A stretch of DNA of 64,000 nucleotides, taken from contig JAAXWW010000005.1 in assembly GCA_013334765.1 (NCBI GenBank), positions 28,350 through 92,349 on the forward strand. Reading direction: 5' to 3'. The notes under the pieces are model-generated. The model had not been told where the DNA came from. It searched no databases and saw only the letters and a list, made by a program, of their open reading frames with translations. This document shows, piece by piece, positions 28,043-59,392 of this stretch. Each line of letters opens with the position of its first letter. The first letter of the stretch is position 1. Source of the DNA: Candidatus Moraniibacteriota bacterium. GTDB taxonomy: Bacteria > Patescibacteriota > Minisyncoccia > Moranbacterales > UBA2206. The position numbers and the translations under genes are program-made.

Positions 28043-30511
28043 TTATATGACGCTCCGCATTCCGGCTCTGGTCATGATTTCGCGCTCAACGAGATCGCGG
28101 TCGCGGCCGTATTTGAAACGGGAAAGCTCCTTGAGCGCATTGGCGATTTCCTGATTGCCCTTGATCGGAGGGAAAGTCGCCATGTTGAAAGGCTTGGTGA
28201 GCGCGTTATCGATGAGGATTCTGGCAAAGCCGTTATAGTTGTCCACATTCACCAGGTCTTTGGCACTGAAGGTCGGAGCGAACTGCTTTTCCAGGAACTC
28301 AGCGTCCTCAGGGCCGACCCTGAAAGCCACCATCGATCCCACATTCCCGAACACCGCCTTGGAAATCTCCTCCTTGAGCTGAGCGATGAACTGATGCGCC
28401 AGCACCAGGCAGAGCCGGTATTTCCTGGCTTCGGAAAGAATCTGCGAGATGGAATTGGTCGTGACATTCTGGAATTCATCGAGATAGAGATAGAAATCCT
28501 TCCTCTCATCCTCCAGGATATCGGCGCGCGAAAGCGCTGCCATAAGGATCTTCCCGACAATCACCATCCCCAAGAGGCGCGCATTGATCTCGCCTATCTT
28601 CCCTTTGGAAAGAGCAACCAGAAGGATCTTCTTGCTGTCCATGATATCTCGGAAATCAAGCGTGCTCTTCTGCTGGGCGATGATCGGGCGCATCATATCG
28701 TTTGATATGAAAGGCGTGAGTTTCGAGGTGATATAAGGAACCATGTTGGCAAGCGAGGCTTCGCCGCCGGCCTTTTCCGCTTCCTTGGTCCAGAAATCGA
28801 CTACGATCGGATTCTTGCATTTCTTGAGTTTCATGGCGCGGAAAGATTCATCGGAAAGCACTTTTGGGATTTCCATAAGCGTCGATCCGGATTCGGGATC
28901 ATCCATGACAAGGAGCATGGCGTTCCGCATATACTGCTCGAACATCGGTCCTCCGGTCGCTTTCAAGTCATAGAGCTGGTCGAATATCCCGATCATCTCA
29001 TTGATAACGAAGGTCTTGAGTTCCGGCCTAGTTGTGTCATATTCAAGCATATTCAGCCCGAAGGGACGCTCCGTATCGGCCGGATTGAAAACAATTACAT
29101 CTTCGGCTCGCTCTTTCGGAATAGCAGTCAGGATATCTTCGATAGCATCCCCGTGCGGGTCAATGAAGCAGAAACCGCGACCGTCCCTGGCATCCTGCTT
29201 CGCCATTTCCTGCAGGAAATTGGATTTTCCGACTCCGGTCTGTCCGATTGCATACAGATGGCGCCTGCGGTCTTTCTCTGAAATCCTGATAGTAGTCTTC
29301 GTTCCGCGATAGTCGTTGTATCCAAGGGTTATTCCCTCAGTTGGAATATTTATCGGCGGAGGGGAAGCGTTGGATTTCAGCCATTTGATTTTCGGCGTTT
29401 CCGTGGTCGAAATGGGAATATGGTATATGCTGGCAATTTCCTCATTGCTGAGCGTTATGGATTCATCCGATTTGAAATTGCGGAAAATGAAATCATAAGC
29501 GATTTCCTTCTTATCCATCCTTTTGACTTGGAAGTAGTTTATGTCGGAATTCTGGTATTGCGAAAAAGCGTTTTCGAGATGGCCTAGGATTTCCTGGGCA
29601 CGTTCCTGGGTCTTGGCCGAAGCGACCAGGCGGATATTGACACGGAATCCGCTTTTGACGCTCTTCCTCTCGATGCTCTTCACCAGTTCCTGTTCTTCCG
29701 GCGTAAGCTGGACGACCGTCTTCTCAAAAGATTGCTGATCTTTACCTTCGTGCGCGATAACCCCGGAGATGGCGCTGCCCACTTCGCGACCGACTTTCAG
29801 CATGAAGTGTCCCGTGACATCCTTGAGCCGTTTGCCTTGCTGCATTTCGTGCGCGATGCGCTTCCCTTCGCTTCTCCAGCCTGTTCCGGCGGGAGCAAGA
29901 ACCAGCTGGATAGCTGCCCCTTCTTCGACAGTGTCCAGCTTGCTTATGGCGTTAGTAATAGCGTTCAATGGGTCTATTTCCAGATCCTCATAGGTTTTTA
30001 TCGGCAAGGCATGGCTTTCCTTGAGGATTATGATCGACGCCTCAGTGAAGCTTCCAGGAGAAAAAACGCTATAGTCGCCGCATTTCTCCAAGACTGCGTT
30101 CGGGAAATAGCTGTGGATCTGCTTTTCAACGCTCTCGCGGAATTTCTTGGGAATGGAAATAAAGAATATTATCTCTTCGGAATCGGACGAATTGGCTATT
30201 TCGAAAGAAATGCTCGGAGAACCATATATCAGCTTCTTAAAGAATCCCTTCTTGTCCTTCATCGAAGAAAGCGCCGTAAGAAGCTGTTCCATGGCGCCTA
30301 TTTCGTCTTTCCAAGTCTGCTTCTCCCTACTGCTGTCTTCGGGCCTTATTTCCATCTTGGAGACACGGATAATATCCAGATCGAGATTCATCGACTGGTT
30401 TATTTGAGAGCGGAAAGAAACGAATCCATTGATGATAGTCAGGGCGCCCAGAATAAGCGTTGCCAGTCCGGAAACGACAAGAATCGGAATCAGGATAATA
30501 TTGATGTCCAT
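28043..30511 (-). CDS. Fused N-terminal membrane domain plus FtsK/HerA-VirB4-like (DUF87-type) ATPase (822 aa)
   Basis: An N-terminal TM is followed by a domain homologous to the 3388-4662 product. The ATPase has Walker A AIGQTGVGKS, FIDPHGDA and Walker B FYLYLDEFQNV. Confidence 0.8.
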   Translation of the reverse strand: MDINIILIPILVVSGLATLILGALTIINGFVSFRSQINQSMNLDLDIIRVSKMEIRPEDSSREKQTWKDEIGAMEQLLTALSSMKDKKGFFKKLIYGSPSISFEIANSSDSEEIIFFISIPKKFRESVEKQIHSYFPNAVLEKCGDYSVFSPGSFTEASIIILKESHALPIKTYEDLEIDPLNAITNAISKLDTVEEGAAIQLVLAPAGTGWRSEGKRIAHEMQQGKRLKDVTGHFMLKVGREVGSAISGVIAHEGKDQQSFEKTVVQLTPEEQELVKSIERKSVKSGFRVNIRLVASAKTQERAQEILGHLENAFSQYQNSDINYFQVKRMDKKEIAYDFIFRNFKSDESITLSNEEIASIYHIPISTTETPKIKWLKSNASPPPINIPTEGITLGYNDYRGTKTTIRISEKDRRRHLYAIGQTGVGKSNFLQEMAKQDARDGRGFCFIDPHGDAIEDILTAIPKERAEDVIVFNPADTERPFGLNMLEYDTTRPELKTFVINEMIGIFDQLYDLKATGGPMFEQYMRNAMLLVMDDPESGSTLMEIPKVLSDESFRAMKLKKCKNPIVVDFWTKEAEKAGGEASLANMVPYITSKLTPFISNDMMRPIIAQQKSTLDFRDIMDSKKILLVALSKGKIGEINARLLGMVIVGKILMAALSRADILEDERKDFYLYLDEFQNVTTNSISQILSEARKYRLCLVLAHQFIAQLKEEISKAVFGNVGSMVAFRVGPEDAEFLEKQFAPTFSAKDLVNVDNYNGFARILIDNALTKPFNMATFPPIKGNQEIANALKELSRFKYGRDRDLVEREIMTRAGMRSVI

Positions 30512-39696: not shown

Positions 39697-40542
39697 TCAT
39701 TCCAGCCGTTTTCTGTTTCTGCCTGATGCCAAGAAATTATTTCCGGTCACTACGCTTTTTCCGGTTTTCTGTTCAAGCGCGGTTCTCGCGTCCTTAGCGA
39801 TCCTGCCGCCTTTTTTAGCTGGAACCTTATTCTCTTCCAAACCTTTCGCCTTCATTGTTTCGGCGATCTGCCGGGTCGAAAGTTCAGCCAGGGCTGTGAA
39901 GACCAATTCGGCGTCCGACATATGATCGCGCAGATTATGAGTCTTGAGTTTTTTCAGATTCTTATGCTCTTTGATGGTCAGGTCGCTCCATTCTTGATGG
40001 ATTATATTCGTCAGAATCGCGAATTCATCTTTCTCTTGAACATCGTTGTTTTTCCAATAGTCCGTCAATTTGTTCCTGACCTCCTGCCCCATCATCCTTT
40101 GCTGGATCCATTTCTCGCTCCGGCCCATCTTCAGCCAATATTCCCTCGAGCGATTCATCGCCTTTTCCGGATCTGACATTTCCTGAATTCGCTCATAGCC
40201 GACTTTCGCCAGCCACAGTTTGATCGGTTCGGCTTTTTTGGATGGAACCGATTGGATCAAGCGCAGAATCGTTTCGGTATTCGCAACATCAGTCTTATAG
40301 AATTTACCATCGGCAGATTGCAATTTCAGTTTGTCACATTTTGTGACAGACTCATTTCCTTCTTTTTTTAAGCGATTCTTAAGAGTTGTCCAATAACTTT
40401 GCGCTTTCTTGAAATCTTTCTGCTCAATCAACGCTGCCACGATATCGATCACCGAAAAATACCAAGTTTCGGTTTCTTCATCGTAGTGCCGGCGAATCTT
40501 GAAATTCTCAAAAATCGCCAATGAGTCCTTTTCCTTCGCCAT
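39697..40542 (-). CDS. DinD-like (DNA-damage-inducible protein D family) protein with an N-terminal Bro-N-like domain, paralogue 1
   Basis: The N-terminus AIFENFKIRRHYDEETETWYFSVIDIVAAL is Bro-N-like. The central KAEPIKLWLAKVGYERIQE and C-terminal KNLKKLKTHNLRDHMSDAELVFTALAELSTRQI parallel E. coli DinD (KGLKKNQKILDHMGSTELAANLF). Confidence 0.75.
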   Translation of the reverse strand: MAKEKDSLAIFENFKIRRHYDEETETWYFSVIDIVAALIEQKDFKKAQSYWTTLKNRLKKEGNESVTKCDKLKLQSADGKFYKTDVANTETILRLIQSVPSKKAEPIKLWLAKVGYERIQEMSDPEKAMNRSREYWLKMGRSEKWIQQRMMGQEVRNKLTDYWKNNDVQEKDEFAILTNIIHQEWSDLTIKEHKNLKKLKTHNLRDHMSDAELVFTALAELSTRQIAETMKAKGLEENKVPAKKGGRIAKDARTALEQKTGKSVVTGNNFLASGRNRKRLE

Positions 40543-42446: not shown

Positions 42447-43600
42447 ATCCCAGATTTTTGCGCCTGATTTGCCGCTTTTATCTTTTCCAAATATTCCAAG
42501 ATGTTTTTCTTGAACTTCTCTTTCGAAAATTCGTTCGCCTTGTTCCTGATCGCTTCCCTGTCGTAGCCTTTCTCGTTTTCAATGAATCTCCTCACTCCGT
42601 CAGCGATCACTTCCGGAACCGATGAGGCAAAGAACTCTCCCGTCTTGCCCTCGACAATCACTTCTCTCATGCCGCCTTTCCTGATCGAAAGGACCGGAAC
42701 GCCATATGACATAGCCTCGACCGGTGCGATTCCGAAATCATCCACTCCCGGAAAAACGAAGGCGCGCGCATTGCTATATATCTCTCCCAGCTTTTCATCC
42801 GGAACGAACCCGGCGAAACGTATATTCTTCCCAGCAATCGATTTCAGGTATTTTTCCTGTTCGCCTGTCCCGACCACCACCAGTGGCAGCTCCAGCTTAT
42901 TGAAAGCCTCGATTGCCGCGTCGACCTTCTTGTATGCCGACAGGCGGGAAACGATGAGGAAATAATTATCCTTGATGTCTCCTGCTCCTTGCTTGCCCAC
43001 CGTAGTCCCGCTTAGCGGGACGAAGGCGGGTGGATAAATGACTTCGGAATCCCTGCCATAATATTTCCTGATACGGTCCCGGGTATATATCGAATTGGAA
43101 AGCAGAAGATCCGGCCTATCGGAAGCGACGCGGTCCCAGACGCGGATATAGTTGAGGATGAAGCGGGTGATGAAGCGTATGCATCCCAAGCGGCTCCTTT
43201 GATTGAGATATTCCCCATTCATGTCCCAGATGAAGCGCATCGGGCTGTGGACATATGAGACGTGGGTCGTGTTGAGGCGCGTCACGATCCCCTTTGACCA
43301 CGCTCCGGAGCTCGAAATGACCAGATCGAAATCCCTCAGATCGAAAGTCTCCGGCGCGACCGGGAGGAACGGCAGCAGCCATTTCTTCCTCTTCTTGAGA
43401 AAGGCGGGAAATTTCTGCAGGAAGGAAACACGCACGTCCTTTGATCCGAATCTCTCCCCTAAGGCATTTTTGTCATATATGAGGGTATATATCGGCGCGT
43501 CCGGAAAAATCTCAGACAGAGCCAGAAGGACCCTTTCTGCTCCTCCGAACTGAGTCAGGAAATCATGCACCAAGGCTATTTTCAATTCTTTTTTGTTCAT
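42443..43600 (-). CDS. GT4-family glycosyltransferase
   Basis: The GT-B C-terminal motif is FVFPGVDDFGIAPVEAMSYGVPVL (E-x7-E). Confidence 0.85.
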   Translation of the reverse strand: MNKKELKIALVHDFLTQFGGAERVLLALSEIFPDAPIYTLIYDKNALGERFGSKDVRVSFLQKFPAFLKKRKKWLLPFLPVAPETFDLRDFDLVISSSGAWSKGIVTRLNTTHVSYVHSPMRFIWDMNGEYLNQRSRLGCIRFITRFILNYIRVWDRVASDRPDLLLSNSIYTRDRIRKYYGRDSEVIYPPAFVPLSGTTVGKQGAGDIKDNYFLIVSRLSAYKKVDAAIEAFNKLELPLVVVGTGEQEKYLKSIAGKNIRFAGFVPDEKLGEIYSNARAFVFPGVDDFGIAPVEAMSYGVPVLSIRKGGMREVIVEGKTGEFFASSVPEVIADGVRRFIENEKGYDREAIRNKANEFSKEKFKKNILEYLEKIKAANQAQKSGI

Positions 43601-44412
43601 TCCAGCGGGCTTTTTATGTTTTTTAGCATCGGATTGGTCACTTTGGTATAGATCTGCGTTGTCCTAATATTAGCATGACCCAGAAGTTCCTGCACATAAC
43701 GGACGTCCACCCCGTTTTCAAGCAAATGCGTCGCGAAACTGTGACGCAAGGAATGGAAAGTGGCCGTTTTTTTGATCCCCGCTTTTTTGAGCGCGTTTTC
43801 AAAAACCTTCTGGGCTGTTCGTTCGGTCAGTTTGCCTCCCCTTTCACTGCCAAAAACATAGTCATTCAAATTTTTGCTTCCGATTATTTTTCCCAAATCC
43901 CCAGCCAGCTTTTCCGGGAAAACGGTTATGCGGTCATTATTGCCCTTGGCTCCTTTGATATGGATCGTCAACTCCTGCAAGCCGATATCTTTTACTTTCA
44001 AATTAACAACTTCGCTGACTCGCAAGCCGCCGGAATATGCCAGCGCAATCATCAGCCTATGTTTCTCATTGCTTATGGATCCCAGAAGCACCCTGATTTC
44101 ATCCCTGGACAGCACGATCGGCAGCTTGCTCGGAGTTTTGGCGAATCTGATATCGATTTTCCCCTGATATTTCAAAACACTCCGACAAAAGAAATTGATC
44201 GCTTGCAGGCTCTGATTGACTGTCTGCGAAGACATCCCTTTGTCAATTTTGATCAAGAGGTGTTTCTTGATGAAATCCTCATCCACTGAATCGAATCCGC
44301 ACCGCTTTTCACGCAAATAGTCCGCCACGCAAGCAACATAGCTTCTGACTGTTTTAGGGCTATACTTCCTCAATCTCAATTCATCCTCCAGTTTTTTCAA
44401 ATAGACCTCCAT
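43597..44412 (-). CDS. Tyrosine site-specific recombinase, XerC/XerD family
   Basis: The catalytic residues are RVSEV, HSLRHSFATHLL and LLGHANIRTTQIYTKV (R...H-x-x-R...Y). Confidence 0.9.
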   Translation of the reverse strand: MEVYLKKLEDELRLRKYSPKTVRSYVACVADYLREKRCGFDSVDEDFIKKHLLIKIDKGMSSQTVNQSLQAINFFCRSVLKYQGKIDIRFAKTPSKLPIVLSRDEIRVLLGSISNEKHRLMIALAYSGGLRVSEVVNLKVKDIGLQELTIHIKGAKGNNDRITVFPEKLAGDLGKIIGSKNLNDYVFGSERGGKLTERTAQKVFENALKKAGIKKTATFHSLRHSFATHLLENGVDVRYVQELLGHANIRTTQIYTKVTNPMLKNIKSPLE

Positions 44413-44484
44413 TGGGATATTTGATATAATTAAATCACAATAAAATTATACATAATATTCTCAAATGCAACAATATTATGCATA

Positions 44485-44707
44485 CTATGCGAAAACACTT
44501 CGCATATGGAAGAGTTATTCAAAATGTCGCGCGCTACGCTTGCTCCATTTTGAATAACGTGCAGCTATGCGAAGGGGCTATGCGCAAAGAAAAAAGATTG
44601 TCTTTATCAATCGCGCGCGCCACTTCGTATAACTACCGCTATACGGCTGACGCCCAAATCCCGACTCCGCTCCGCTCCGTCGGGACTTCGCATAGCTGCA
44701 CGTTATA
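44485..44707. repeat. Inverted-repeat-rich non-coding element between xer and the DUF218 gene
   Basis: AATAACGTGCAGCTATGCGAAG (44553-44574) and CTTCGCATAGCTGCACGTTATA (44686-44707) match at 21 of 22 positions as an inverted repeat. Nested hairpins are TATGCGAA-AACAC-TTCGCATA (44485-44505) and TCCCGAC...GTCGGGA (44659-44685). The motif GCTATGCG recurs. Confidence 0.5.
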
Positions 44708-44729
44708 TGAAATTTCACCCCTCCTCACT

Positions 44730-45377
44730 ATGATAAATAAACAAACATTTGAATTAGCAAACAAGTTGTGGGATTACCACCACGTTAATCAATCTCTTGA
44801 AAAATCTGATTGCATTTTAGTTCTGGGTAGTCATGATTTGAGGGTCGCCGAAAGAGGCGCGGAATTATATCTTCGAGGATTGGCACCTATTATAATTTTT
44901 TCTGGTGGCCTTGGAAATTTTACAAAAGAAATTTGGGATGAGTCTGAAGCTGACAAGTTCACAACTATTGCTATGAATATGGGAGTTCCGCGTGATGCAA
45001 TTTTGATTGAGAATAAATCAACGAACACTGGCGAAAATATTTTGTTTACGCAAAAGTTGCTAAAGGAAAATGGCCTTGATCCGCAAAGTTTTATCGTTGT
45101 GCAAAAACCGTATATGGAAAGAAGGAGCTATGCGACATTCAAAAAACATTGGCCTGACAAAAAACTTGCGGTCACATCGCCCCAAATTTCTTTTGAAAAA
45201 TACTACAATGATGAAATTCCGCTTGAAAAGGTGATAAATATCATGGTCGGCGACTTACAAAGAATTAAAATATACCCAGAAAAAGGATTTCAGATTTTTC
45301 AAGAGATACCAAATGAAGTGTGGTCTGCATATGAACAACTTGTTAGTCTGGGGTACGACAAACATTTAGTGAAATAA
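44730..45377 (+). CDS. DUF218 (YdcF/ElyC/SanA-like) domain protein
   Basis: CILVLGSHD...YLRGLAPIIIFSGGLG is the DUF218 core. The start is taken at MINKQTF. The upstream 252 nt of the track ORF is the inverted-repeat element and is not protein-like. Confidence 0.7.
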   Translation: MINKQTFELANKLWDYHHVNQSLEKSDCILVLGSHDLRVAERGAELYLRGLAPIIIFSGGLGNFTKEIWDESEADKFTTIAMNMGVPRDAILIENKSTNTGENILFTQKLLKENGLDPQSFIVVQKPYMERRSYATFKKHWPDKKLAVTSPQISFEKYYNDEIPLEKVINIMVGDLQRIKIYPEKGFQIFQEIPNEVWSAYEQLVSLGYDKHLVK

Positions 45378-45637
45378 ACCGGAGGGGTGAAACATCATAT
45401 AACAAAGAATATCTGGCTCCAAAATTTTTCACTTTTATATTTTCAGATGAAAGAAAAATTTTTTCGACCCAAATTCATTTCCGCTACGCTACAATGAACT
45501 TCAGATATTCTTAACGTTGTCGGAAATAAAATTCTTTTCTTTTCCCATACGATCAAAGCATTGTTCAGGGAAAATATCCGGTTGCAATTTTCTGCGAAAG
45601 ACCCGCCTAATTCCGTCATTTTTGACGGTTTTTGTAA

Positions 45638-45658
45638 ATAGTGATACACTATCACTAT
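45638..45658. promoter_or_regulatory. Palindrome upstream of dinD-like paralogue 2 (same core as at 40558)
   Basis: ATAGTGATA-CAC-TATCACTAT lies 21-41 nt upstream of the ATG at 45679. It shares the TAGTGATA/TATCACTA core with the paralogue 1 site. Confidence 0.5.
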
Positions 45659-45678
45659 AATAAATATAGCTTGCACAA

Positions 45679-46509
45679 ATGAACAACACAAACAGCCACA
45701 TCGCCATCTTCGAAGGAAAATCCATCAGGAAAATCATCTATCAGAATGAGTGGTGGTTTTCGGTGGTTGATGTTTGCATGGTTCTTACTGGTAGTCCAGA
45801 CCCAGGGGCCTATTGGAGGAAGTTAAAACAACGGCTAATAGCCGAAGGAGGTGAAGTCGTGACATTTTGTCACGGGTTGAAATTGCCAGCTCCGGACGGT
45901 AAAATGAGGGAGACTGATTGCGCCAACACTGAAGGAATGTTCAGAATCATCCAATCAATCCCCTCGCCCAAAGCCGAGCCATTGAAGCGTTGGCTAGCTA
46001 AAGTCGGTTATGAGCGTATTCAAGAGGTAGAAAATCCCGAATTAGCAACAAAAAGAACCAGGATGCTTTACAAACTCAAGGGATATCCTGAAGACTGGAT
46101 CGAAAAACGAATGCGCGGTATCGCTATCCGGGAAGAACTGACTGAAGAATGGAATAAACGCGGAGCAGAAACCGATCGGGATTATGAGATTCTAACCGCA
46201 GAAATTTCACAGGCGACTTTTGGAATGAAGCCGAGTGAATACAAGAAACTAAAAGGATTGAAACGAGAGAATCTTCGCGATCATATGGACGACTTCGAAT
46301 TGATCCTTACCATGTTGGGCGAAAGAACTACTACTGAAATACATAAAACCAGGGATTCCAAGGGATTGCCGCGACTCAAAGATGATGCTCGCAGAGGCGG
46401 ATCAGTTGCCGGAACCGCCAGAAAACAAATCGAAAGACAAATAGGCAGACCGGTGGTTTCAAAAAACAATTTCTTGAAACAGAAAAACGACAAAGGATTG
46501 AAGAAATAA
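45679..46509 (+). CDS. DinD-like/Bro-N domain protein, paralogue 2
   Basis: IAIFEGKSIRKIIYQNEWWFSVVDVCMVL, AEPLKRWLAKVGYERIQE and KKLKGLKRENLRDHMDDFELILTMLGERTTTEI match the DinD family. It is collinear with paralogue 1. Confidence 0.75.
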   Translation: MNNTNSHIAIFEGKSIRKIIYQNEWWFSVVDVCMVLTGSPDPGAYWRKLKQRLIAEGGEVVTFCHGLKLPAPDGKMRETDCANTEGMFRIIQSIPSPKAEPLKRWLAKVGYERIQEVENPELATKRTRMLYKLKGYPEDWIEKRMRGIAIREELTEEWNKRGAETDRDYEILTAEISQATFGMKPSEYKKLKGLKRENLRDHMDDFELILTMLGERTTTEIHKTRDSKGLPRLKDDARRGGSVAGTARKQIERQIGRPVVSKNNFLKQKNDKGLKK

Positions 46510-46555
46510 ATTTTCCCAACCCTGATTGGATTCAATAATAAATAACAAACCGATC

Positions 46556-47644
46556 TTAGTCTTCGATAATCTTCTTTATCAGCCCGGCGCACTTCTCCCA
46601 GCTGAATCTTTTGATATTCTCTTTGCCCTTCTGTATCATCTCATTGGCCAGCTTTTCGTCCGTTATGAGGGAAAGAGCTGCTCCGGCTATGAACTCAGGC
46701 TCGCGAGGATCGACTAGGAGCGCGCTTCCCTCGGCAACCTCAGTAAGAGACGATACGTTCGAAGAAACGACTGGCACGCCCGCATTCTGAGCCTCGAGGA
46801 TAGGAAGGCCGAAACCTTCATAGAAAGTCGGGAAAAGGAAGACTGACGCGCCTTCAAGCAGTTCCTGTTTCTTTTCGGCGTTCACGAATCCGGTCTCGAC
46901 TATTTCCGCCTTAAATTCGCTTTTTTCGATCTGTTTTTTTATATCCTCATATCCGTGTCCCGGACGGCCGATGAGCACGAGGCGATGAGGAATGCCATGC
47001 TTGGATTTCAATATTTCAAACGCCCTTATCATCCCCTCGATATTCTTCCGTTTCTCTATCCTGCCGATGAACAATAAATAAGGATCATTCTTATCATCTT
47101 TTGACTTTTTTCCGCCAACTGGCGGATTAACTTCTGACTTTTCTTCATATCCTTCATATATGACGCTTATCTTCTCTTTCGGGACTTCATAGATATTGGT
47201 CAGGTCTTTTCTCGTGCTTCTGGAAACGCTTATTATCTTTTTCGCCCACTGGCATGATTTCTTGATGGACATGCGCATATAGAAGCGCTCCCAGGGAGAA
47301 TAGGCTTCCGGCATCACTTCGAACTCGAGCCCATGGATCGTGACAACGGTGTTTTCAGGATGGATTATCGGAACAGTGTGAGCCGGAACGAACAAGGCGT
47401 CGACCGGATGGAGCATGAGCTCCAATGAAAGCCCGATCTGAGTCCAGAACCGGCTGAATCTTATCTTTTTCATCCTCCAATTGGATGGCAGCTCGAAATC
47501 AGGCATCTGTTTGCTTCTCAGATACAAAATGACCTGATGGTCATTCAGTTTTCCTGCAAGATGCCTTATGGTCCGATATGAATATTCCTCAATTCCCGTC
47601 CTCTGCTTCAAAAAAGCGCGCGAGCCGTCTATGCCTATTTTCAT
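46556..47644 (-). CDS. GT4-family glycosyltransferase
   Basis: FLFPTFYEGFGLPILEAQNAGVPVVSS is the E-x7-E motif. Confidence 0.85.
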   Translation of the reverse strand: MKIGIDGSRAFLKQRTGIEEYSYRTIRHLAGKLNDHQVILYLRSKQMPDFELPSNWRMKKIRFSRFWTQIGLSLELMLHPVDALFVPAHTVPIIHPENTVVTIHGLEFEVMPEAYSPWERFYMRMSIKKSCQWAKKIISVSRSTRKDLTNIYEVPKEKISVIYEGYEEKSEVNPPVGGKKSKDDKNDPYLLFIGRIEKRKNIEGMIRAFEILKSKHGIPHRLVLIGRPGHGYEDIKKQIEKSEFKAEIVETGFVNAEKKQELLEGASVFLFPTFYEGFGLPILEAQNAGVPVVSSNVSSLTEVAEGSALLVDPREPEFIAGAALSLITDEKLANEMIQKGKENIKRFSWEKCAGLIKKIIED

Positions 47645-47667
47645 GGGTGTTTTTGTTTTATGTATTT

Positions 47668-47788
47668 CTCTACGAATTACGAATTTTACGAAATTACGAA
47701 TTTTTTACTGAATGATAAAATAAAAATAACAAAAATAATTTTGCTAAGAAGATGTTCGTATATTCGTAATGATTCGTAGTTCGTAGAG
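47668..47788. repeat. Composite inverted-repeat element built from TACGAAT heptads around an AT-rich spacer
   Basis: The left arm CTCTACGAATTACGAATTTTACGAAATTACGAAT (47668-47701) faces the right arm, whose reverse complement is CTCTACGAACTACGAATCATTACGAATATACGAAC (47752-47788). They flank a 50-nt spacer of about 90% A/T. Confidence 0.6.
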
Positions 47789-47818
47789 ACCGTAGGAACC
47801 ATACATATACAGAAAGTA

Positions 47819-48826
47819 TTACTTACTCAGCATTATCGTTCTCTTGTATAGCTCAAGATTCTCAAGCGCGATTCCGATTCCTTTGATGACGCAGAACAGC
47901 GCTTCGTCCGCGACATAGCACGGAACACCGATGGTTTTGGTGATCAGCTGATCAAGGTTGCGAAGCAGCGCTCCGCCGCCGGATAGCACCATCCCCTTGT
48001 CCATTATGTCGGCAGCCAACTCTGGCGGAGTTTCCTGAAGGACTTTCTTGATAGCATTGATGACTTCGCGCAGTTCGTCTTGAATAGCTTCCGTAACTTC
48101 GTTGGATGATATCTTCACCGTGCGCGGCAACCCTCCCGTGAGGTCCCGGCCCCTGACTTCCATATAGTCTTCCTTCACTTGAGGAAGCGCTGAACCGATC
48201 TTTATCTTCACATCCTCCGCGGTCCTGTCCCCGATCGCTAGGCTGTATTTTCGCTTGATATAGTCCGCGATAGCCTGATCGATCTTGTTGCCGCCGATCC
48301 TGGCGCTGGTGGCGGAGACTATTCCGCCGAGGGATATTACTGCCACTTCGCTCGTTCCTCCACCGATATCGATGATCATGTTCCCGGCCGGATTATTGAT
48401 GGGAATTCCAGCTCCGATCGCTGCCAGAACAGGCTCGCGGACAACATAGGCGGATTTGGCTCCGGCACGGATCGCAGCGTCGATGACGGCGCGCCTCTCT
48501 GTCGAAGTCACTCCGACCGGAATAGATATCATGATTTCAGGCCTCACGAAACGGAACTTGCCGCTCACTTTATTGATGAAATATTTGAGCATGGCTTCGG
48601 TTATCTTGTAGTCAGCAATGACTCCGTCTCTCATCGGGCGGCTAGCCACGATGGAATCCGGCGTGCGCCCCAGCATTTCTTTGGCATCATTGCCCACTGC
48701 CAAAACCTTGTTTTCCAAAACAGAAATGGCCACCACTGACGGCTCATTCGACACTATCCCCTTCCCCGGAACATACACCAAGACATTGGCCGTCCCCAGA
48801 TCGATTCCGATTTTTCTTATCAGCAT
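47819..48826 (-). CDS. mreB: Rod-shape-determining actin homologue MreB
   Basis: IGIDLGTANVLVYV, the phosphate loops and DIGGGTSEVA are present. Confidence 0.9.
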   Translation of the reverse strand: MLIRKIGIDLGTANVLVYVPGKGIVSNEPSVVAISVLENKVLAVGNDAKEMLGRTPDSIVASRPMRDGVIADYKITEAMLKYFINKVSGKFRFVRPEIMISIPVGVTSTERRAVIDAAIRAGAKSAYVVREPVLAAIGAGIPINNPAGNMIIDIGGGTSEVAVISLGGIVSATSARIGGNKIDQAIADYIKRKYSLAIGDRTAEDVKIKIGSALPQVKEDYMEVRGRDLTGGLPRTVKISSNEVTEAIQDELREVINAIKKVLQETPPELAADIMDKGMVLSGGGALLRNLDQLITKTIGVPCYVADEALFCVIKGIGIALENLELYKRTIMLSK

Positions 48827-48840
48827 AGATTTTTTCGTTA

Positions 48841-55878: not shown

Positions 55879-55998
55879 GTTCCCAGCATTGTCCTACTCT
55901 TCCCCCGCCTGAGCGGGGATACCATCGGTGCTGATAAGCTTAACGGCCGAGTTCGGTATGGGATCGGGTGTTTCCTTATCGCTAGAAACACTGGGAAC
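55879..55998 (-). rRNA. rrf: 5S ribosomal RNA
   Basis: The reverse complement reads TTCCCAGTG...CCCGATCCCATACCGAACTCGGCCGTTAAGC...CACCGATGGTATCCCCG...GGGGAAGAGTAGGACAATGCTGGGAA with helix I pairing. The ends are approximate. Confidence 0.85.
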
Positions 55999-56239
55999 GA
56001 TACATTCAAAAAGTGCTTAGAATGCCTTGATCACAGGAGAGAAAAACATGAATGATGCAATGGCAATCAGGATAACAAAAAACACGGCTGATATGAACTT
56101 CAAATTATCAGTATACCTTTTCATAAGTGACTTTTTTAGTAACTGTTAACTGCTAACCGAATCATACCATATATCATGAAACACCGCACATGAGACTTGC
56201 GCCTCATATAAAGTGCTCCACGTTATATGGAAAATAAGA

Positions 56240-59392
<3,153 letters not shown>

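Follow-up and report, generated by a model that had tools for sequence, protein, structure and literature searches.

The intergenic region between a gene for a Xer-like tyrosine recombinase (xer) and a DUF218 gene in a Candidatus Moraniibacteriota bacterium (assembly GCA_013334765.1, contig JAAXWW010000005.1) holds a 220-bp non-coding element rich in inverted repeats. We analysed this element in its 64,000-nucleotide stretch (positions 28,350 to 92,349 of the contig, hereafter the window, whose own numbering is used throughout) together with loci from related genomes, numbered L001 upwards. We judge it probable that this region forms the integrase-proximal end of a gene-cassette platform of integron-like design. 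As judged from its sequence, the 220-bp element appears to be a dif-like core site plus a gene-less cassette, the first of an array, and the platform itself appears to be widespread in the Candidate Phyla Radiation (CPR, Patescibacteria). The original prediction had offered three roles for the element: a recombination site for the adjacent recombinase, a structured non-coding RNA (ncRNA), and an insertion resembling a miniature inverted-repeat transposable element (MITE). The first is supported here and becomes more specific, the site consisting of a dif-like, attI-like core and an attC-like folded cassette without a gene.

The attI-like core site occupies 44498–44525 (+ strand) and is conserved in 43 loci. 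Its L arm CTTCGCATAT (44498–44507) and R arm GTTATTCAAAAT (44514–44525) enclose the central region GGAAGA (44508–44513), and crossover would take place at G|TT, between 44514 and 44515. In the xer sense, the consensus of the 43 loci is ATTTC..aTAAC|TCgTTt.TATgCGAA; read away from xer, it is TTCGCATA-n-AACGA-G|TTAnnnGAAAT, that is, two arms around ~6 bp, where the variable nnn(n) of the R arm is part of the first cassette. In all 43 loci the site thus has the build of dif sites, with two ~11-bp arms around a 6–8-bp centre, and its R arm TTAnnnGAAAT resembles the XerD arm of E. coli, TTATGTTAAAT. It lies 100–140 nt upstream of xer in the same 43 loci, the place beside the integrase gene that is typical of attI. 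The xer-proximal ~105–113 nt are conserved across many loci in blastn and iterated nhmmer searches, and the conservation between the window and its relatives ends at 44517–44525; the remainder of the element reappears farther upstream, in some loci more than once. A first hairpin at 44486–44506, TATGCGAA-AACAC-TTCGCATA, with a stem of 8 bp and a loop of 5 nt, is made of the core L arm and an inverted extra copy of it. This hairpin is kept beside xer in closer relatives as TATAyGCGAAGTGTTTTCGyATA; in distant loci, only the TATGCGAA copy is retained.

The gene-less cassette spans 44515–44702, and its folding strand is the − strand, i.e., the xer sense. Read on the top strand, it consists of an R'-derived end TTATTCAAAATG (44515–44526), a 'cargo' of 19 nt (44527–44545), the R'' box CATTTTGAATAAC (44546–44558), L'' GTGCAGCTATGCGAAG (44559–44574), a branched interior (44575–44685), L' CTTCGCATAGCTGCAC (44686–44701) and a terminal G (44702). 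The R'' box is perfectly complementary to the box on the attI side (44514–44526), which is the rule for cassettes described below; the resulting perfect 13-bp hairpin with its 19-nt loop had been overlooked in the original prediction. L'' pairs with L', and this pairing is the large inverted repeat that was noticed there. The repeat had been described as 22 bp with 21 matches and with arms about 110 bp apart. Indeed, its core (44553–44574 and 44686–44707) matches at 21 of 22 positions and the measured spacing is 111 nt; the full repeat is longer, with 28-nt arms (44547–44574 and 44686–44713) that are 89% complementary. Both helices of the cassette are perfect (R, 13 bp; L, 16–20 bp). The 19-nt core of the arm is found exactly twice in 64 kb, once per orientation, where 0.01 is expected, and the motif reported earlier as recurring, GCTATGCGMA, occurs three times in the window versus 0.24 expected. 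Two hairpins, said to be nested, are both present, at 44486–44506 and at 44656–44688 (the P2 hairpin of the unit family below); the former, however, is situated outside the big inverted repeat and is not nested in it. The description of the region as non-coding also holds: the open reading frame (ORF) from 44478 prolongs DUF218 upstream in the same frame, and the start at 44730 fits that family. Folding 44478–44720 as a single strand yields −90.1 kcal/mol (z = −6.5) for the + strand and −107 kcal/mol (z = −7.1) for the − strand, or xer sense, and in both cases 0 of 200 shuffles were as stable.

An inverted repeat next to a tyrosine recombinase gene could also be an inverton, whereby the 28-nt repeat lets the recombinase flip the 111-bp segment to control xer or DUF218. 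We give this hardly any credence. The two arms show helical covariation and vary in sequence from copy to copy, the inner part points the same way with respect to xer in every homologous copy, and the promoter scan found no promoter-like site within the segment.

The gene-less cassette contains an inner 'short-type' unit at 44622–44713 on the − strand (61.5 bits, E = 2e-11, a match along the whole length of the covariance model R1 described below). This inner unit shares the 5' box ATTTCATATAAC, the L'' arm, the P2 hairpin at 44656–44688 and the TTTGGGCG core, and adds a second, imperfect 3' half, GTATAGCGGTA plus GTTATACGAAGT. Alignments of the gene-less family (A1 and A5) reveal two subfamilies with the same plan; compensatory changes affect the long stem as well as the 3' hairpin and the inner half-site/hairpin. 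Homologues were found in L013 (three copies), L015, L021, L039, L020, L010, L008, L019, L069 and L027. A search for further copies, proposed in the original prediction as a sign of a MITE, gave a mixed outcome: the 64-kb window has a single copy, but L013, L076 and L051 have several. Those of L013, a complete Wolfebacteria genome, are three 191-nt copies with 95–98% mutual identity, spaced 783 and 1196 nt apart. According to match coordinates, the family provides the first cassette beside the core in at least about 15 loci. Because it is multi-copy and often the first cassette, and has perfect helices and a cargo of 19 nt, these features suggest that the gene-less cassette is a minimal, highly recombinogenic, selfish element.

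Short (G/A/T)AGCG repeats were observed in the hairpin loops of units and past some 3' boxes (GGAGCGGAGCGGAG, GCGTAGCGTAAG, GAGCGAAGCGAG and GTAGCGGAGCGGAAGCC), for instance at 44656–44688 of the window, at 2347–2440 of L024, and in many unit loops among L002–L102. Possible explanations are recognition by an accessory factor and a side effect of base composition.

The design of the gene-less cassette recurs, mostly in a shorter version, in a family of units of about 90–210 nt. For this survey, 80 relatives of the recombinase were fetched with their loci across CPR lineages and added to the window. The covariance model R1, built from 16 units of four loci plus the second unit of the window, was run over the window and the 80 loci with a threshold of E < 0.01. 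It finds 116 units, every one of which is on the xer-sense strand. At least one unit is present in 42 of the 43 loci that have at least 1.5 kb of sequence upstream of xer; L052, the remaining one, has the attI-like core. Two of the matches are in the window (45392–45527 and 44622–44713). In the xer sense, a unit reads ATTTC-nnnn-AAC, a stem strand ending in ..ATATGCGAAG, a hairpin, AATTTGGGYGA, a second hairpin, GAACC, the complementary stem strand, and GTGTTA-nnn-GATGT.

The fold of these units is under selection. With 16 units, RNAalifold yields 35 pairs, 20 of which have compensatory changes. In the alignment of 116 units, which was fitted to the model, 92% of the cells are paired, both sides change in 29 of the 35 pairs, and the covariation score is 0.50, compared with 0.06–0.08 when partners are slid. 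Two G.U pairs hardly vary (111/116 and 103/116). Stability favours the xer-sense strand in 106 of 116 units with RNA parameters and in 98 of 116 with DNA parameters (p = 1e-14).

Such data bear directly on the proposal that the element is a structured ncRNA transcribed in the xer sense, either as a leader that regulates xer or as small or antisense RNAs to the cassette genes. The very stable fold of the − strand, the strong covariation, the conserved G.U pairs and unpaired motifs (e.g., AUUUGGGYGA), and the fact that the xer-sense strand is the more stable would all suit an RNA. Nevertheless, we consider this reading quite improbable. The covariance scan against Rfam 15, which the original prediction had recommended, matched no family: nothing reached the gathering score, and at E ≤ 10 there were only two weak matches at chance level. 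The element sits upstream of the conserved xer promoter (see below), and a promoter scan of the region returned weak consensus matches and no promoter of the element's own. Furthermore, the tandem arrays antisense to ORFs, the complementary boxes that bound those ORFs, and the synteny breaks at the core would all be left unexplained by an RNA. On the + strand, a consensus promoter match (TAGACC-17-TATAAT, 44402–44430) is a candidate for Pc, the promoter that would drive the cassettes. A terminator scan returned no sites.

The layout of the units is that of a cassette array. The 213 kb searched upstream of xer hold 114 units, the 411 kb searched downstream 0. The DNA separating neighbouring units has a median length of 626 bp; 93 of these spacers hold an ORF of at least 60 amino acids, which is directed away from xer in 85 of the 93 and fills a median of 79% of the spacer. 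The products are diverse, and the recognisable ones are accessory enzymes or domains, including NUDIX, glyoxalase, methyltransferase, RibD_C/DHFR, isochorismatase, Ham1, SRPBCC, LD-carboxypeptidase, the metallo-beta-lactamase fold and DUF218. Homology among cassette proteins was considered as a sign of shared cassettes and set aside, with only two homologous pairs among about 95 proteins.

The cassette boundaries follow a rule. Thus, the GTTnnnnGA box on the far side of an ORF (xer sense) and the TCnnnnAAC box on its near side, compared over the five variable positions, are perfectly complementary in 42 of 87 adjacent pairs, as opposed to 5.5% of random pairs and 6% when a unit's own two boxes are compared (p = 2e-29). 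In integrons, such a pattern results from a fixed crossover at the inner R' edge, through which each cassette is bounded by its own R' remainder and its R''. In 21 of 60 cassettes (L002–L081), the complementarity runs on for 8–24 cassette-specific bp, versus 1.9% in controls, and through such extended repeats a whole ORF could be looped out by a long stem on a single strand. Co-oriented sites, mostly single ORFs and an R' remainder, by which the cassette arrays of integrons are known, are therefore all present.

These observations also allow us to weigh the possibility that the element is a palindromic repeat independent of the recombinase, whether of the repetitive extragenic palindrome (REP) or bacterial interspersed mosaic element (BIME) type or MITE-like, and common near xer by chance. 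Its multi-copy nature, with the three 191-nt copies of L013 and the repeats in L076 and L051, would fit, as would the orphan copies and xer-less clusters in metagenome contigs described below. In addition, 30 of the 80 contigs stop less than 450 bp upstream of xer, at the array, as would be expected at repeats. However, all 116 units have the same orientation as xer, and none of them lies downstream, where twice as much DNA was searched. The arms of the conserved core site are matched by the boxes, the box rule is the footprint of a site-specific crossover at a fixed point, and neither target-site duplications nor a transposase was found. The likelihood of such a repeat is therefore, to us, slightly below even that of an ncRNA. 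Of the MITE-like role first envisaged, the multiplicity in other genomes and the orphan copies stand; the spread occurs within arrays at defined boxes and is not driven by a transposase.

The contig ends just upstream of xer hint at a repeat or a variable region there, and loci of this kind are probably under-represented and fragmented in metagenome-assembled genomes (MAGs).

Comparison of close genomes places the variable region precisely. Synteny begins 114–133 nt upstream of xer, at the core site. For example, identity between L015 and L016 is 90.6% over the stretch that runs from 114 nt upstream of xer to ~6.9 kb downstream of it, and nothing is shared on the array side; in L005 and L010, common flanks on both sides enclose different 3.2-kb arrays; the pairs L018/L019 and L021/L022 show the same breakpoint behaviour. 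For the window, L011, L014 and L023 are syntenic on both flanks (xer–GT4, and the GT4 gene at 46556–47644 on the − strand plus mreB), and the cassettes in between differ. Here, 47148–48835 is syntenic with the three loci and 44526–46555 is not. Syntenic flanks around differing cassettes make the locus a sedentary chromosomal platform with variable content. Taken together, the box rule, the orientation bias and the breakpoints are explained by none of the alternatives to a cassette platform.

The presumed integrase of the array is the Xer-like tyrosine recombinase encoded by the ORF at 43597–44412 on the − strand (271 amino acids). Its catalytic residues are readable as R in GLRVSE, HxxR in HSLRHS and H...Y in GHANIRTTQIY, and its Pfam domains are Phage_int_SAM_4 and Phage_integrase. 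Among NCBIfam models, the best is the integron integrase TIGR02249 (214 bits where the cutoff is 265; two stretches match, and the centre of the profile does not), and the second is XerA (212.6 bits versus a cutoff of 220). In the Protein Data Bank, the closest structures are XerA (4a8e, 9e-41) and Vibrio IntI4 (2a3v, 3e-39). The enzyme is closest to IntI and XerA. Residues 174–194 occupy the place of IntI4 residues 178–241, making the protein ~43 residues shorter there; the additional domain of IntI is therefore absent. The relatives come from 80 species-level CPR genomes and are 57–81% identical, covering Moran-, Wolfe-, Lipton-, Portnoy-, Gottesman-, Shapiro-, Uhr-, Komeili-, Abawaca- and Dojkabacteria, among others. 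Close relatives of the window's genes are all from CPR MAGs, and a Logan assembly contains an identical contig.

A sigma-70-like promoter for xer is predicted at 44445–44473 (− strand) from the consensus of aligned upstream regions of 25 loci, with −35 TTGTTG (44468–44473), a 17-nt spacer, and −10 TATAAT (44445–44450) preceded by TG. Relatives have similar sequences, e.g., TTGCTA-17-TGTGTATAAT in L005 and L010. The predicted promoter is positioned between the recombination site and xer.

Alternatively, the recombinase may simply be the housekeeping enzyme. It might be the sole resolvase of chromosome dimers, with the site being dif and the cassettes being hijackers akin to integrative mobile elements exploiting Xer (IMEX), much as CTX phage and TLC hijack Xer in Vibrio. 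This would change the primary role of the enzyme, not the chemistry. The two-arm architecture of the core is dif-like, the window has no second recombinase of this kind, and the protein is unusually conserved across phyla. A site beside its recombinase gene also has a precedent in difSL, which adjoins the gene of XerS. It is also relevant that a 'Cand' group of recombinases from candidate phyla, described as taxon-specific simple recombinases and noted only as Xer-related, is among the possible substitutes for Xer (PMC8138268). Position speaks against it, however. GC skew is negative throughout, with the cumulative skew falling monotonically across the 64-kb window, and neither a skew switch nor a flip in gene orientation is seen near 44.4 kb in the window; in view of the missing switch, the core is not evidently a terminus dif. 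In the complete genome CP011209, the gene is at about 119 kb of 984 kb, relative to an unplaced origin. Moreover, arrays in 42 of 43 testable loci suggest a dedicated platform. We therefore regard a housekeeping role as unlikely, although it is the least unlikely of the alternatives.

How might the platform work? In the mechanism we propose, the double-stranded dif-like core upstream of the xer promoter (L arm TTCGCATA, about 6 bp, R arm GTTnnnnGAAAT) would act as attI. Each cassette brings the R' remainder, an attC-like site and, usually, a single ORF directed away from xer. The site's strand antisense to the ORF, i.e., in the xer sense, folds into an R-box helix (ATTTCnnnnAAC / GTTnnnnGA), a bulge of 2–3 nt, and an L-box helix (..ATATGCG / CGCATAT..), plus a conserved three-way junction, AAGUU-hairpin-AAUUUGGGYGA-hairpin-GAACC. 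Apart from the bulge, the folded site mimics the arm-6 bp-arm geometry of the duplex core, in that the 8–9 nt between the two helices on the 5' strand are reduced to ~6 helical positions through the 2–3 bulged nt. The R helix corresponds to the core R arm and the L helix (..ATATGCG) to the core L arm. The recombinase would then carry out a single-strand exchange, with a folded site as one partner and either the core or a second folded site as the other; its cut would fall at AA|C of the folding strand, which corresponds to G|TT of the top strand. This mode of action would be like that of integron integrases on attC × attI, and of XerCD on the folded attP of CTX phage. The units with their fold, orientation and position, the box rule and the hypervariability of the arrays are observed; the single-stranded DNA substrate, catalysis by the adjacent recombinase, the exact cleavage point and the selfish nature of the gene-less cassette are what we infer.

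Several facts weigh against the cassette-platform reading. First, the boxes are imperfect in 45 of the 87 adjacent pairs. Second, the recombinase lacks the additional domain of IntI, which in integrons is required for attC recognition. Third, a three-way junction with G.U pairs would also suit an RNA. Fourth, the alignment of 116 units was fitted to the model and hence leans toward structure; the result from the 16-unit seed is independent of that fit. Fifth, for the Bro-N gene next to the array (see below), no distal attC-like site was found by model or by eye. Finally, five metagenome contigs (L084, L088, L089, L093 and L094) have 1.6–12 kb on the expected side without xer.

The metagenome contigs merit a closer description. 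They were picked by the subfamily's own motif, and most are too short or have no xer on the expected side. This independent sample of 21 contigs confirms the co-oriented arrays, since its 54 units are co-oriented within every contig; only L098 and L082 show xer. L089, L093 and L094 have small arrays and no xer within 3.7–5 kb. In L088 (61–300) and L084 (1400–1751), orphan gene-less cassettes adjoin no more than the initial ~60 nt of the xer-proximal conserved region, namely the core and the first hairpin, and no xer follows. The orphan copy of L088 is 54 kb from an array with xer (L098) on the same contig, Ga0209727_1000014. Arrays without xer imply that the link between units and xer is not obligatory in cis. 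Separately, in L083 (12112–14063) and L096, from contigs of 245 and 370 kb, a unit, a small cassette and an attI-like motif are found beside an unrelated phage-type integrase of 393 amino acids, which seems to adjoin a tRNA-like sequence. Possibly, the would-be position of xer was taken there by a genomic island.

The likeness to integrons is extensive. In both systems, a tyrosine recombinase gene diverges from co-oriented cassettes with mostly one ORF; cassettes end in imperfect palindromes with boxes of the RYYYAAC...GTTRRRY type, e.g., GCCTAAC / GTTAGGC; the inferred crossover is G|TT, so that each cassette has its own R' remainder; the preferred folding strand is antisense to the ORFs; and the sites within one genome are alike. 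The array is hypervariable and has accessory genes (NUDIX, glyoxalase, isochorismatase and others), and cassettes without a gene occur. Clusters without an integrase exist here too, comparable to the clusters of attC sites lacking integron-integrases (CALINs). With regard to the R''-L''...L'-R' plan of attC, the boxes and a folded, covarying two-helix stem are present; the interior is a three-way junction and the geometry differs.

Several differences were also found. First, the CPR recombinase is without the additional domain, which is defining and necessary for integron integrases (PMC9668308); we therefore class the system as integron-like and not as a member of the integrons. Second, the CPR sites are larger (about 90–210 nt) and have a sequence-conserved three-way junction, where integrons have a free, variable terminal structure. 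Third, the R box of the CPR sites spans 12 nt with GAAAT at its end, and cassette-specific pairing often lengthens it. Fourth, the R and L helices are parted by a one-sided bulge of 2–3 nt, as opposed to the unpaired spacer with extrahelical bases of integrons. Fifth, the attI-like site is dif-like.

The system also has features of Xer/dif and IMEX. Its recombinase has the size of a Xer protein and is nearest to XerA by sequence, and the core has two arms around about 6 bp and adjoins the recombinase gene as in XerS/difSL; XerH/difH, another single-recombinase system, and archaeal XerA were part of the comparison. In the attP(+) of CTX phage, too, a folded single strand imitates a duplex site. 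Unlike dif, however, the CPR site is not at the terminus by GC skew or gene orientation in the window, and unlike IMEX, its passengers are tandem single-gene cassettes with folded sites of their own, rather than phages or islands between duplex copies of dif. The pdif modules of Acinetobacter plasmids are likewise small gene modules bounded by Xer-type sites, but they have inverted duplex XerC/XerD sites instead of co-oriented folded sites used by a dedicated recombinase. The gene-less cassettes of the Vibrio superintegron also consist of a recombination site with little or no cargo in an array; those of CPR differ in their cargo of only 19 nt, a duplicated 3' half-site, multiple copies within arrays, and no evident promoter activity.

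The integron surveys consulted place these systems in Archaea and in bacterial phyla other than CPR, and in the full-text searchable literature (subscription-only papers being outside its scope) we found no description of cassette arrays in CPR. With less assurance than for the locus itself, we incline to the view that CPR bacteria carry an unrecognised, phylum-spanning gene-capture system. This would be a functional integron run by a Xer/XerA-like recombinase without the additional domain, with a dif-like attI, attC-like sites with three-way junctions, and selfish gene-less cassettes, and it would represent either an intermediate between Xer/dif and integrons or an independent invention. If active, it would mean that cassette capture through folded single strands does not need the IntI additional domain. 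If the view is true, it would also offer a concrete evolutionary route from Xer/dif to integrons, and would reveal where gene flux is concentrated in the very small, streamlined CPR genomes. On a practical level, the array explains why MAG contigs frequently break just upstream of xer, and why gene calls for the first cassette ORF are over-extended. Our data suggest that surveys of integrons keyed on the IntI domain would miss such loci.

In the window, the gene-less cassette is followed by the DUF218 cassette (44703–45516, + strand), whose ORF at 44730–45377 matches Pfam DUF218. The R' box GTTATATGAAAT at 44702–44713 (+ strand) spans the junction, its G belonging to the gene-less cassette and TTATATGAAAT opening the DUF218 cassette. 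This R' is complementary to the R'' CATCATATAAC at 45393–45403 on the far side of the ORF, and both window cassettes thus obey the box rule. The ORF is additionally flanked by a cassette-specific extension of the repeat, TTTCACCCCTCC (44714–44725) versus GGAGGGGTGAAA (45382–45393). A minus-strand GGAGG near 44720 had been considered as belonging to a small ORF, which was rejected, the sequence being an arm of this cassette-specific inverted repeat. The attC-like site of the cassette, and last unit of the array, is at 45392–45527 on the − strand (R1 86.7 bits, E = 1.5e-17; nhmmer E = 1e-8), with R'' at 45393–45403 and R' GTTGTCGGAAAT at 45516–45527. A DUF218 cassette is also found in another array, that of L047. 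The public call for the DUF218 gene is 296 amino acids (9036–9926 of L001, i.e., 44487–45377 of the window) and reads through the gene-less cassette; first cassettes at such sites are likely mis-annotated routinely.

Between the last attC-like site and the conserved flank that begins with GT4 is a gene with a Bro-N domain (45679–46509, + strand). Its status as a cassette is uncertain, since the distal attC-like site was not found. The gene and its flanks (45528–46555) are within the variable segment and have no synteny to L011, L014 and L023. A weaker second Bro-N gene is at 39697–40542, on the opposite side of xer.

Elsewhere in the window, the rRNA genes appear unlinked. No 16S rRNA was seen in the 4.6 kb past the 5' end of the 23S rRNA, which occupies 55881–59382 together with a 5S rRNA and, at 3146 nt against a model of 2925 positions, has insertions.

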